Source: Escherichia coli
GTDB taxonomy: Bacteria; Pseudomonadota; Gammaproteobacteria; Enterobacterales; Enterobacteriaceae
Length of the DNA: 64,000 bases
NCBI RefSeq assembly: GCF_003334815.1
Contig: NZ_QOWO01000025.1
Strand: one strand, 5' to 3'
Below the pieces are notes generated by a model that searched no databases, was not told where the DNA came from, and saw only the letters and a list, made by a program, of their open reading frames with translations. Positions 30,702 through 34,557 of the stretch are shown here, in pieces (the first letter of the stretch is position 1; every line of letters begins with the position of its first letter). A program made the position numbers and the translations under genes.

Positions 30702-32366
30702 ATGTGTTCAATTTTTGGCGTATTCGATATCAAAACAGACGCAGTTGAGCTGCGTAAGAAAGCCCTCGAGCTGTCACGCCTGATGCGTCATCGTGGCCCG
30801 GACTGGTCCGGTATTTATGCCAGCGATAACGCCATTCTCGCCCACGAACGTCTGTCAATTGTTGACGTTAACGCGGGGGCGCAACCTCTCTACAACCAAC
30901 AAAAAACCCACGTACTGGCGGTAAACGGTGAAATCTACAACCACCAGGCATTGCGCGCCGAATATGGCGATCGTTACCAGTTCCAGACCGGGTCTGACTG
31001 TGAAGTGATCCTCGCGCTGTATCAGGAAAAAGGGCCGGAATTTCTCGACGACTTGCAGGGCATGTTTGCCTTTGCACTGTACGACAGCGAAAAAGATGCC
31101 TACCTGATTGGTCGCGACCATCTGGGGATCATCCCACTGTATATGGGGTATGACGAACACGGTCAGCTGTATGTGGCCTCAGAAATGAAAGCGCTGGTGC
31201 CAGTTTGCCGCACGATTAAAGAGTTCCCGGCGGGGAGCTATTTGTGGAGCCAGGACGGCGAAATCCGTTCTTACTATCATCGCGACTGGTTCGACTACGA
31301 TGCGGTGAAAGATAACGTGACCGACAAAAACGAGCTGCGTCAGGCACTGGAAGATTCAGTTAAAAGCCATCTGATGTCTGATGTGCCTTACGGTGTGCTG
31401 CTTTCTGGTGGTCTGGATTCCTCAATTATTTCCGCTATCACCAAGAAATACGCAGCCCGTCGCGTGGAAGATCAGGAACGCTCTGAAGCCTGGTGGCCGC
31501 AGTTACACTCCTTTGCTGTAGGTCTGCCGGGTTCACCGGATCTGAAAGCAGCCCAGGAAGTGGCAAACCATCTGGGCACGGTGCATCACGAAATTCACTT
31601 CACTGTACAGGAAGGTCTGGATGCCATCCGCGACGTGATTTACCACATCGAAACTTATGATGTGACCACTATTCGCGCTTCAACACCGATGTATTTAATG
31701 TCGCGTAAGATCAAGGCGATGGGCATTAAAATGGTGCTGTCCGGTGAAGGTTCTGATGAAGTGTTCGGCGGTTATCTTTACTTCCACAAAGCACCGAATG
31801 CCAAAGAACTGCATGAAGAGACGGTGCGTAAACTGCTGGCCCTGCATATGTATGACTGCGCGCGTGCCAACAAAGCGATGTCAGCCTGGGGCGTGGAAGC
31901 ACGCGTTCCGTTCCTCGACAAAAAATTCCTTGATGTGGCGATGCGTATTAACCCACAGGATAAAATGTGCGGTAACGGCAAAATGGAAAAACACATCCTG
32001 CGTGAATGTTTTGAAGCGTATCTGCCTGCAAGCGTGGCCTGGCGGCAGAAAGAGCAGTTCTCCGATGGCGTCGGTTACAGTTGGATCGACACCCTGAAAG
32101 AAGTGGCTGCGCAGCAGGTTTCTGATCAGCAACTGGAAACTGCCCGCTTCCGCTTCCCGTACAACACGCCAACCTCTAAAGAAGCGTACTTGTATCGGGA
32201 GATCTTTGAAGAACTATTCCCGCTTCCGAGCGCCGCTGAGTGCGTGCCGGGCGGTCCTTCCGTCGCTTGTTCTTCCGCTAAAGCGATCGAATGGGATGAA
32301 GCGTTCAAGAAAATGGACGATCCGTCTGGTCGCGCGGTTGGTGTTCACCAGTCGGCGTATAAGTAA
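30702..32366 (+). CDS. asnB: Asparagine synthetase B (glutamine-hydrolysing)
   Basis: 554-aa product starting MCSIFGVFDIK (N-terminal Cys nucleophile); six-frame ORF trimmed by 27 codons. Confidence 0.95.
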   Translation: MCSIFGVFDIKTDAVELRKKALELSRLMRHRGPDWSGIYASDNAILAHERLSIVDVNAGAQPLYNQQKTHVLAVNGEIYNHQALRAEYGDRYQFQTGSDCEVILALYQEKGPEFLDDLQGMFAFALYDSEKDAYLIGRDHLGIIPLYMGYDEHGQLYVASEMKALVPVCRTIKEFPAGSYLWSQDGEIRSYYHRDWFDYDAVKDNVTDKNELRQALEDSVKSHLMSDVPYGVLLSGGLDSSIISAITKKYAARRVEDQERSEAWWPQLHSFAVGLPGSPDLKAAQEVANHLGTVHHEIHFTVQEGLDAIRDVIYHIETYDVTTIRASTPMYLMSRKIKAMGIKMVLSGEGSDEVFGGYLYFHKAPNAKELHEETVRKLLALHMYDCARANKAMSAWGVEARVPFLDKKFLDVAMRINPQDKMCGNGKMEKHILRECFEAYLPASVAWRQKEQFSDGVGYSWIDTLKEVAAQQVSDQQLETARFRFPYNTPTSKEAYLYREIFEELFPLPSAAECVPGGPSVACSSAKAIEWDEAFKKMDDPSGRAVGVHQSAYK

Positions 32367-32378
32367 GAAATGCGAAAC

Positions 32379-32406
32379 AGCCCCGGTGAAATCCGGGGCT
32401 GTTTCA
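32379..32406 (+). terminator. Rho-independent terminator after asnB
   Basis: Hairpin cagccccgg(tgaaat)ccggggctg plus T-run. Confidence 0.6.
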
Positions 32407-32676
32407 GTTATTGAGGTGCTTGTTGATTCTGATATGCAGTAAGGAAATGTTCCGGGTTTGCCACATCACTGTTTGACAACTCATCACTGTAGGCCAGTAT
32501 TTCATAGATTAATTTCCCACCACTATTGTTAAATTCCGAATTTCATCCTGTATGACAAAAGAATGGCTGTAGGGTGGGAAAAAACACAAAGTAAACAATA
32601 ATTGACGAATATAGCGCCACGCTGTTCGCAACCTAACCAAACAGTCACTTTCGAGCAATTTTCCTTGAAAAAGAGG

Positions 32677-32712
32677 TTGACGCTGCAAGGCTCTATACGC
32701 ATAATGCGCCCC
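32677..32712 (+). promoter_or_regulatory. tRNA operon promoter with GC-rich discriminator
   Basis: -35 TTGACG, 17-nt spacer, -10 cATAAT, then GCGCCCCGC discriminator typical of stringently controlled stable-RNA promoters. Confidence 0.5.
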
Positions 32713-32745
32713 GCAACGCCGATAAGGTATCGCGAAAAAAAAGAT

Positions 32746-32822
32746 GGCTACGTAGCTCAGTTGGTTAGAGCACATCACTCATAATGATGGGGTCACAGGT
32801 TCGAATCCCGTCGTAGCCACCA
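32746..32822 (+). tRNA. metT: tRNA-Met (elongator, anticodon CAU)
   Basis: 77-nt cloverleaf ggctacgtagctcag...gtagccacca with CAT in the anticodon loop and encoded CCA. Confidence 0.9.
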
Positions 32823-32831
32823 TCTTTTTTT

Positions 32832-32916
32832 GCGGGAGTGGCGAAATTGGTAGACGCACCAGATTTAGGTTCTGGCGCCGCAAGGTGTGCGAGTTCAAGT
32901 CTCGCCTCCCGCACCA
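32832..32916 (+). tRNA. leuW: tRNA-Leu (anticodon UAG)
   Basis: 85-nt class II tRNA gcgggagtggcgaaattggtag...cccgcacca, long variable arm. Confidence 0.9.
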
Positions 32917-32939
32917 TTCACCAGAAAGCGTTGTACGGA

Positions 32940-33014
32940 TGGGGTATCGCCAAGCGGTAAGGCACCGGTTTTTGATACCGGCATTCCCTGGTTCGAATCC
33001 AGGTACCCCAGCCA
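32940..33014 (+). tRNA. glnU: tRNA-Gln (anticodon UUG)
   Basis: 75-nt tggggtatcgccaagcggtaagg...ccccagcca; anticodon loop ttTTGat. Confidence 0.9.
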
Positions 33015-33029
33015 TCGAAGAAACAATCT

Positions 33030-33106
33030 GGCTACGTAGCTCAGTTGGTTAGAGCACATCACTCATAATGATGGGGTCACAGGTTCGAATCCCGTCGTAG
33101 CCACCA
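33030..33106 (+). tRNA. metU: tRNA-Met (elongator, anticodon CAU), second copy
   Basis: Identical 77-nt sequence to 32746-32822. Confidence 0.9.
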
Positions 33107-33153
33107 AATTCTGAATGTGTCGAATATGTTCGGCAAATTCAAAACCAATTTGT

Positions 33154-33228
33154 TGGGGTATCGCCAAGCGGTAAGGCACCGGATTCTGATTCCGGCATTC
33201 CGAGGTTCGAATCCTCGTACCCCAGCCA
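33154..33228 (+). tRNA. glnV: tRNA-Gln (anticodon CUG)
   Basis: 75-nt tggggtatcgccaagcggtaagg...ccccagcca; anticodon loop ttCTGat. Confidence 0.9.
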
Positions 33229-33232
33229 CATT

Positions 33233-33262
33233 AAAAAAGCTCGCTTCGGCGAGCTTTTTGCT
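33233..33262 (+). terminator. Rho-independent terminator of tRNA operon
   Basis: Hairpin agctcgc(ttcg)gcgagct followed by ttttt. Confidence 0.7.
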
Positions 33263-33269
33263 TTTCTGC

Positions 33270-33380
33270 GTTCATTCAATGTCGAATGCGATGTTGACAC
33301 GTCTTATCCTTCAATGTCGGATGCGACGCTGCCGCGTCTTATCCGACCTACGGTTGGCACGCATCCGGCAATGTTGTAAG
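33270..33380. repeat. REP-like palindromic units
   Basis: Repeated gtcgaatgcgatgttgacacgtcttatcc / gtcggatgcgacgctgccgcgtcttatccgacctac / gcatccggca motifs. Confidence 0.7.
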
Positions 33381-33381
33381 G

Positions 33382-34557
33382 CTACAACCCTAACGCATAT
33401 TTCAGCGCCTGACGTTTCAACACGCCAGCACGCTCCGCCGCCATTAACCCGAGATTACGCATAAAACGCAGTGGTGGCAGATTATTGCTGAATCCGGCAT
33501 AAAACAGATCCATACCGCTTTGCATAATGAAGTTATCCGCCATGCGCCGCATCTGGTAACGCTTGAGGACAGGATAACTGGCCCACGCTTCGCCGTAGCT
33601 GCGGGCGTTGACCAGAACATCAATCAGGGCATCGACATCACGATAACCAAGATTCACTCCCTGCCCCGCCAGCGGATGGATGGTATGCGCGGCATCGCCC
33701 ACCAGCGCAAGCCCTGGCTGCACGTACTGCAACGCATGGCGACGCGTCAGCGGAAACGCACCAGCGGCAAGCGGTGTAACGTAACCCAGACGCGACGGGA
33801 AATGCTTCGCGATTTCCGCCTGGAGCTGTGCCATATTCATATTCTGCAACTGGCGAATACGCGCCGGAGAGTCATACCACACCAGCGATGCCCAGTTATC
33901 AAACAACGGCAGAAACGCACGCGGTCCGTCCGGAGTAAATTGCTGCCAGGTGCTGTCGCCGGGATCGTTCTCGCACTGGACGCTAATCAACATGCACGAC
34001 TGCGCATACTGCCATGCATGAACGCCAATTCCCGCCATCTGCCGCACCTGCGAATTTGCGCCGTCGGCACCAATCACCAGCTTCGCGCGAATCACTTCAC
34101 CGCCTTTCAGCTCCAGCTCCTGAAGATCATCATGGCGATGCAGCGCAATCAGCGAGCCTGGCACACGTAACGTTACTTTCGGATGCGCTTCCAGCGCCTG
34201 CCACAACGCCTGTTGCAGGACAGTGTTTTCCACCATATAGCCAAGCAGCGGTAGCTTAAGTTCAGCGGCGTCAAACACCACATGCGCCGTTTCCCACTCC
34301 CACGTTTCCAGTCTGCGGTAAGGATGGCAACGCATAGCCTGTACTGCATCCCAGACCCCTAACCCTTTAAGCAATGATACCGAAGCCGCGCTGATCGCCG
34401 AGATCCGCACGTCCGGTTGGCTATCAGCGACAAACGGCGCTGGTTCTGCGTGCTCGATCACCGTTACCGCAAATCCGTGCTGTGCCAGCCCCAGCGCCAG
34501 TGCGCCGCCGACCATTCCTCCGCCGACAATGGCAATTTCCGTTGGTTGATTTGTCAT
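33382..34557 (-). CDS. ubiF: Ubiquinone biosynthesis FAD-dependent hydroxylase UbiF
   Basis: 391-aa product starting MTNQPTEIAIVGGGMVGG (FAD GxGxxG); six-frame ORF begins two codons upstream (MTMTNQ), so the start is ambiguous by 6 nt. Confidence 0.9.
   Translation of the reverse strand: MTNQPTEIAIVGGGMVGGALALGLAQHGFAVTVIEHAEPAPFVADSQPDVRISAISAASVSLLKGLGVWDAVQAMRCHPYRRLETWEWETAHVVFDAAELKLPLLGYMVENTVLQQALWQALEAHPKVTLRVPGSLIALHRHDDLQELELKGGEVIRAKLVIGADGANSQVRQMAGIGVHAWQYAQSCMLISVQCENDPGDSTWQQFTPDGPRAFLPLFDNWASLVWYDSPARIRQLQNMNMAQLQAEIAKHFPSRLGYVTPLAAGAFPLTRRHALQYVQPGLALVGDAAHTIHPLAGQGVNLGYRDVDALIDVLVNARSYGEAWASYPVLKRYQMRRMADNFIMQSGMDLFYAGFSNNLPPLRFMRNLGLMAAERAGVLKRQALKYALGL

Follow-up and report, generated by a model that had tools for sequence, protein, structure and literature searches.

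Five tRNA genes in the metT operon of an Escherichia coli contig: assembly collapse or deletion at two tandem pairs of glutamine tRNA genes?

In the window analysed here, a stretch of 64,000 nucleotides from the Escherichia coli contig NZ_QOWO01000025.1, the metT tRNA operon is written with five genes instead of the seven of E. coli K-12, and the question raised by this locus is whether the two missing glutamine tRNA genes were lost in the cell or in the assembly. Either way, this is variation of a known kind in a well-known operon. A previous sequence-only reading had described the order Met-Leu-Gln(UUG)-Met-Gln(CUG) between a promoter and a terminator, had given K-12 a seven-gene operon, had explained the difference by unequal recombination between identical tandem genes in the cell, and had left open which of the two states is ancestral.

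ARAGORN, run on the whole 64-kb window, detected exactly five tRNA genes, all in a single cluster on the plus strand, and the Rfam tRNA model recovered the same five with 57.6–71.1 bits against a gathering score of 29, in full agreement with the order read before; neither method revealed additional tRNA genes in 32740–33240, and besides the five tRNAs Rfam reported no RNA family in 31500–34500. On the plus strand, the operon starts with a sigma-70-type promoter at 32677–32705 (TTGACG-17-CATAAT, then a G+C-rich stretch), which was identified by a consensus scan with 10 of 12 matches and equals that of K-12; the same scan gave no second promoter-like site in 32450–33450. The genes that follow are metT, an elongator tRNA-Met(CAU), at 32746–32822 (71.1 bits), and leuW, tRNA-Leu(UAG), at 32832–32916 (57.6 bits), both found by ARAGORN and Rfam and identical to K-12; a single tRNA-Gln(UUG) at 32940–33014 which, when aligned to K-12, is a fusion of glnU and glnW; metU, a second elongator tRNA-Met(CAU), at 33030–33106, identical to metT by repeat analysis; and a single tRNA-Gln(CUG) at 33154–33228, a fusion of glnV and glnX. 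The last three genes were likewise found by both programs. The terminator scan revealed one plus-strand hairpin for the cluster, a Rho-independent terminator at 33234–33264 made up of the hairpin AAAAAGCTCGC-TTCG-GCGAGCTTTTT (33234–33259) and a T-rich tail, again as in K-12. Promoter and hairpin agree with the boundaries, 32677 and 33262, of the sequence-only reading. According to the annotation of genomes that are 100% or nearly identical here, asnB lies upstream and ubiF downstream, with transcription towards ubiF. The cluster is the metT operon of E. coli in a contracted allele, not in the reference seven-gene form. Directly past the terminator, at 33265–33370, there are two imperfect REP-like motifs (tcaatgtcgRatgcga...cgtcttatcc), equal to K-12 across the aligned part, which ends at 33320.

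The K-12 operon had been described correctly: in MG1655 (NZ_CP025268.1) the annotation between asnB and ubiF reads Met, Leu, Gln, Gln, Met, Gln, Gln. By pairwise alignment, the window from promoter to terminator is K-12 minus 109 bp and minus 112 bp, plus one SNP, the only one in the operon, which sits in the metU-glnV spacer. The absent 109-bp unit is a 75-nt tRNA-Gln(UUG) gene with a 34-nt spacer and the absent 112-bp unit a 75-nt tRNA-Gln(CUG) gene with a 37-nt spacer, the spacers at the two Gln/Gln junctions of K-12 being TCTTCTTCGAGTAAGCGGTTCACCGCCCGGTTAT (glnU/glnW) and ATTTATTCAAGACGCTTACCTTGTAAGTGCACCCAGT (glnV/glnX). Within each K-12 pair the two members are identical, perfect identity reaches 77 nt, and the identical 77-nt cores are only 32–35 nt apart. 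The Gln(UUG) gene of the window is flanked upstream as glnU is and downstream as glnW is, and the Gln(CUG) gene upstream as glnV is and downstream, where the terminator lies, as glnX is. The first contraction site is the 77-nt sequence at 32940–33016 on the plus strand (tRNA plus TC), which is repeated perfectly 109 bp apart in K-12, as found by alignment and as a repeat family of spacing 109; judging from the alignment, the crossover or collapse point lies somewhere within 32940–33016. The second, on the same strand, is the 77-nt sequence at 33152–33228 (GT plus tRNA), repeated perfectly 112 bp apart in K-12 by alignment and repeat spacing. Each loss amounts to exactly one repeat period bounded by perfect direct repeats, is scarless and leaves the flanks unchanged. 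Since the exact loss of one period between perfect 77-nt repeats is the footprint expected of unequal recombination or slippage, the mechanism proposed on the sequence fits what is observed.

When all 64 kb are compared with K-12, the differences amount to 23 SNPs, two 1-nt indels, the IS5 of K-12 and the two missing Gln units; neither against K-12 nor against the close relative BR1220 were other repeat-associated indels found in the 64-kb window, which contains no second tandem tRNA array. Both 1-nt indels fall at pseudogene frameshifts of K-12: the record NZ_CP025268.1 has 1-nt frameshifts in kdpD and ybeQ, which the window (6351 and 52858) does not have. The IS5 located between gltI and lnt in K-12 is absent from the window (about 40605–40612).

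To establish which state is ancestral, 5,426 complete E. coli genomes were searched. The counts obtained with queries of 1,401 nt and 176 nt at a coverage of at least 80% were uninterpretable, as pieces matching metT and metU were joined, and were replaced by those of balanced single-copy queries and of junction queries, in which the flanks stay below the word length of megablast, so that a match requires a true Gln/Gln junction. The glnU/glnW junction was found in 5,342 of the 5,426 genomes and the glnV/glnX junction in 5,268, both at 95–100% identity, which gives a prevalence of 97–98.5%; with the single-copy queries, 71 genomes (about 1.3%) have one Gln(UUG) only and 152 (about 2.8%) one Gln(CUG) only. 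Outside E. coli, a pattern scan in which each species was represented by one genome recovered the operon from 120 Enterobacterales and relatives. Among the 97 loci with the whole cluster, the seven-gene order is present in 40, two Gln(UUG) with one Gln(CUG) in 16, one Gln(UUG) with two Gln(CUG) in 12, and one of each in a single case, a Pluralibacter metagenome-assembled genome (L080 5710–6216); over these 97 Enterobacterales species, copies range from one to four for Gln(UUG) and from one to three for Gln(CUG). One of each is also found in Escherichia whittamii Sa2BVA5 (L131 83–565), a draft at 8.6x coverage, and these two are the only species representatives with the five-gene order of the window; both, the draft and the metagenome bin, may be collapses too. 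Salmonella, Citrobacter, Enterobacter, Klebsiella and Kluyvera show the seven-gene order, as also reported for outgroup genera (PMC5400242). In Providencia, Budvicia, Pragia, Oceanisphaera and others (nine loci), the operon reads Met-Leu-Gln(UUG)-Gln(UUG)-Met-Leu-Gln(UUG) and has no Gln(CUG) gene, and in Oceanisphaera marina the Met-Leu-Gln(UUG) unit is repeated in an array of 14 genes.

Because of the junction census, of the seven-gene outgroups and of the seven-gene nearest relatives described below, the ancestral operon is, on this comparative evidence, the one with seven genes, and the five of the window are derived, at the tip of a lineage; the question left open by the sequence-only reading can thus be answered. 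The opposite polarity, in which five genes are ancestral and K-12-like strains owe their additional Gln genes to duplication in tandem, could appeal to the fact that tandem duplication does occur here, about 27 genomes having three or more Gln(CUG) copies, and to the five genes of E. whittamii and Pluralibacter. Nevertheless, the two junctions are so widespread in the species that the duplications must be old and shared, not recurrent, and outgroups and nearest relatives alike have seven genes, so that census and outgroups, as sequence comparisons, effectively refute this polarity already and we give it almost no credence.

The nearest relatives date the contraction. Over the 24.6 kb upstream, the best complete-genome matches differ from the window by only three bases, and all of the five best (BR1220, FDAARGOS_1337, MEI4BO-21, 52F4 and F829) have seven genes, the five-gene state being absent from them. 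Compared over 64 kb, seven-gene BR1220 differs from the window by 10 SNPs, with the two Gln units as the sole indels, and five-gene ECCTRSRTH03 differs by 10 SNPs as well; all the SNPs that the window has in common with ECCTRSRTH03 are in common with BR1220 too. No marker uniting the five-gene genomes was found in the 41–64 kb compared, where the SNP pattern is star-like and the region too conserved to decide. Since the nearest relatives are seven-gene and the indels of BR1220 are the two Gln units only, these alignments place the contraction at the very tip of the window's lineage. BR1220 has A instead of G in the T-loop of leuW (window 32899), its only leuW gene, a change private to this strain.

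Eight of the 10 SNPs counted over 64 kb are private to the window with respect to the nearest complete-genome relatives (876, 5271, 9458, 21087, 21384, 41308, 54218 and 63567), and those that are nonsynonymous produce SpeF D14Y, ChiP Q153H and RlpA A100V. The exact ChiP Q153H and RlpA A100V proteins occur in nine contigs each, none of which exceeds 200 kb or belongs to a complete genome; the records are draft contigs and Logan read assemblies only. SpeF D14Y is shared by the complete genome CP043757.1, and all three variants lie at a distance of more than 10 kb from the operon. Window 10139–31545 is matched at 100% identity by the draft contig LYBH01000141.1, and a related draft contig of 67 kb has its start within rhsC, 44 nt ahead of the equivalent of the window's first base. 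In exact-protein look-ups, the ORFs spanning the contracted single-copy genes were not on record as called genes. As the private ChiP and RlpA variants are limited to contigs of at most 200 kb and a related draft contig breaks in rhsC, the window is very probably a piece of a short-read draft.

The five-gene operon is rare. A total of 43 complete genomes matched the five-gene query over at least 80%, and 13 of them are truly five-gene, the rest having six, four, three or two genes; the true five-gene operon is thus present in about 13 of 5,426 genomes (0.24%), and about 2 would be expected if the two pairs contracted independently (71 × 152 / 5,426). These 13 belong to several backgrounds, with 96.9–100% identity. 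Four of them (ECCTRSRTH03, CEA106S, FDAARGOS_1077 and STK39-3-E) are 100% identical to the window over 1,401 bp, in two flanking haplotypes that are about 168 SNPs per 41 kb apart; it is by this distance that the flanks of FDAARGOS_1077 and STK39-3-E are separated from those of the window. Some strains (e.g. NZ_CP059907.1, 4300851–4301998) have about 430 bp more across the locus matching the query, with a ‘hypothetical protein’ annotated beneath the match.

A single origin of the five-gene allele, followed by its transfer between lineages through homologous recombination (transduction or conjugation), would account for the several backgrounds and for 1,401 identical bp in the window and four genomes, two of which have such different flanks. 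Inspection for a recombination tract around the operon gave no specific signal: the SNPs between the haplotypes are strongly clustered far from the operon, also in seven-gene genomes, and seven-gene BR1220 is equally identical near the operon, so that the identity is not specific to five-gene genomes. Moreover, the other five-gene genomes are 96.9–99.6% identical, several origins being needed anyway, and the association with the unlinked metZWV array reported below would be left unexplained. We consider a single origin with spread very improbable.

The copy number of the Gln genes does change in living cells. Three or more tandem Gln(CUG) genes are present in about 27 complete E. coli genomes, such as K-12 GM4792 (NZ_CP011343.2, 694829–694977), which shows seven matching places, and Rosetta2-DE3 (NZ_CP083274.1), and extra copies of the Gln/Gln junctions were also seen in both junction censuses. 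Since a collapse cannot create extra copies, these expanded genomes reflect real change. In the direction of loss, a single Gln(CUG) is present in the reference genomes E24377A and E2348/69, for the latter in two different assemblies. Furthermore, three five-gene AVS isolates and nine six-gene genomes from other projects have the same upstream variant and identity; these twelve genomes, which come from several laboratories, all have a single Gln(UUG), and their common variant suggests that they form one lineage. The identical metT and metU genes of this operon have been seen to recombine spontaneously when carried on a plasmid (PMC5400242), and the duplicate tRNA2-Gln genes (Inokuchi et al. 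1979) are a further example of copy-number change by unequal recombination.

On the other hand, collapse of this very operon is demonstrated in public assemblies. In the ‘complete’ RefSeq genomes of MC1061, GF47, AVS0947, IPCEC48 and HS13-1, only Met and Gln are annotated at the locus, and nothing else in the record matches. In the case of MC1061 (NZ_CP195014.1, 633539–633737; L004 1247–1445), ARAGORN gave only Met and Gln(CUG), and no Gln(UUG) or leuW was found anywhere in the record, the best hit of the Gln(UUG) query being its Gln(CUG), at 90.7%. The anticodons of leuW and glnU/W are carried by no other gene, and the transcription unit is essential (PMC11480407); as these records lack the sole carriers of essential anticodons, the five two-gene assemblies must be assembly collapses. 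Tandem tRNA genes have been recognised as a major source of misassembly in a genome-comparison study (PMC3045373). In related species, the seven genes of the operon are correctly resolved in the majority of draft assemblies.

Two unlinked arrays with a period of about 110 nt, metZWV and glyVXY (2949692–2949988 and 4394286–4394584 in K-12 NZ_CP025268.1), were examined in the same genomes. A single gene is left of glyVXY in 15 of 5,426 genomes, including MC1061 and HS13-1, and of metZWV in 109. Among 60 listed genomes with single metZWV, at least 21 have a metT operon with a gene number other than seven, against a base rate of about 4%; they include ECCTRSRTH03, CEA106S and STK39-3-E, that is three of the four with an operon 100% identical to that of the window, and the laboratory strains MG1655p, ME8067 and MC1061, which derive from strains known to be intact. 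By contrast, seven-gene BR1220 has a single metZWV too with an intact metT operon, so that in the window's group the reduction of metZWV to one gene may be a genuine trait of the lineage instead of a marker of bad assembly. The lysT array, tried as a test of general collapse, was not discriminating, as it is intact in five-gene ECCTRSRTH03 and also in the positive control MC1061.

Taking these results together, we lean towards the reading that the two Gln units missing from the window were lost in silico and that the strain has the ancestral seven genes. An assembler or polisher would have collapsed two short tandem repeats, the identical 77-nt cores, as long as or longer than the usual short-read k-mers, causing the copies to be merged. 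Identical cores of 77 nt that are 32–35 nt apart would be at the limit of resolution for common short-read de Bruijn k-mers. Collapse is favoured because double contractions are over-represented (13 against about 2), because they are associated with contracted unlinked arrays in the same assemblies, because non-viable assemblies of the metT operon exist, because the nearest relatives are seven-gene and because the window derives from a draft; for this particular assembly we infer it, while for other public assemblies it is a matter of record. The biological origin assumed by the sequence-only reading therefore did not stand as given, the non-viable assemblies and the unlinked arrays making collapse at least as likely, even though the structure, the gene order and the footprint of the mechanism all held.

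A genuine contraction in vivo, in which two separate events removed glnU or glnW and glnV or glnX by unequal homologous recombination between sister chromosomes, by replication slippage or by single-strand annealing across the 77-nt repeats, is a serious possibility, which we would still place short of probable. It is favoured by the real copy-number dynamics demonstrated at the locus, as contraction and expansion that are real would explain a five-gene operon with no need for a collapse: both losses are scarless and of exactly one period, both products of unequal exchange are present in the species (a lone Gln(CUG) in 152 genomes, at least three of them in about 27), E24377A and both assemblies of E2348/69 share the single Gln(CUG), the twelve-genome group with a single Gln(UUG) contains three five-gene members, metT and metU recombine on a plasmid, the Gln(UUG) and Gln(CUG) genes vary in number among the 97 Enterobacterales species, and a five-gene operon would be viable, every essential anticodon being kept. 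However, two independent rare events in one lineage would be needed, for which the 13 genomes seen in several backgrounds are too many; the same assemblies, laboratory derivatives of intact strains among them, tend to have contracted unlinked arrays; some of the contracted states are non-viable; and the window's lineage is known from draft contigs only, next to seven-gene relatives. The contractions might also be real and non-independent, with some natural and laboratory lineages repeatedly shedding redundant copies from several tRNA arrays at once, namely both Gln pairs, metZWV and glyVXY, under relaxed or reversed selection on tRNA dosage or during a transient high deletion rate. This we regard as improbable; if true, tRNA gene dosage would be a fast-evolving, coordinated trait within the species.

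Whatever its origin, the operon as written should, judging from its sequence, be transcribed and processed normally, every retained tRNA, leader, trailer, promoter and terminator being identical to K-12. In this operon RNase E removes the terminator, and processing by RNase P then separates the tRNAs (PMC2241853); accordingly, the window's operon would give one transcript, from which RNase E would take off the terminator before RNase P releases the tRNAs. Should the contraction be real, the gene dosage of the two glutamine tRNAs would be half of normal in this strain, with a single gene per Gln anticodon, and a slight cost at fast growth is possible. Given the copy counts and the essentiality of the anticodons (PMC11480407), a mutation of the supE or supB type would in that case destroy the sole copy instead of a spare one, and such suppressors would probably be unobtainable.

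The sequence-only reading had rightly seen the relevance of the operon to Gln dosage and suppressor genetics, but it had placed supE in glnV: supE44 is a change of the anticodon of glnX that leaves glnV intact (PMC4444293). This is also what we observed in ER1821R (NZ_CP016018.1, L003 2576–2650), where the seventh tRNA has the anticodon CTA (CUA in the RNA) and is labelled tRNA-Pyl by ARAGORN; it is the glnX44/supE44 amber suppressor. The RefSeq annotation omits this seventh tRNA, and the operon of ER1821R consequently looks six-gene. If, instead, the contraction in the window is an artefact, the lesson is a practical one: at short tandem arrays, the number of tRNA genes in a public assembly, even a ‘complete’ RefSeq one, is not to be relied on. 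One or the other Gln pair is contracted in about 1.3% and 2.8% of the complete E. coli genomes, and the operon of at least five is non-viable.

The window can finally be compared with three known situations. With assembly collapses of short tandem repeats it has in common the identical 77-nt cores, and non-viable contractions of the same operon, as well as contracted glyVXY and metZWV arrays, are found in ‘complete’ assemblies; by contrast, its five-gene state is viable, unlike that of the two-gene assemblies, and an artefact could not be called from the sequence alone. Unequal recombination in tandem tRNA genes, of which the instability of tyrT-tyrV is another example, likewise removes one period between perfect repeats and is matched in E. 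coli by arrays both contracted and expanded; in the window, however, a single sequence has contractions at two distinct pairs, which may or may not have arisen in the cell. The closest counterpart is the metT operon of K-12, which lies at the same site between asnB and ubiF and has the same promoter, terminator, gene order and tRNA sequences, but carries two copies per Gln isoacceptor and seven genes, where the window has one of each and five genes and is 221 bp shorter.
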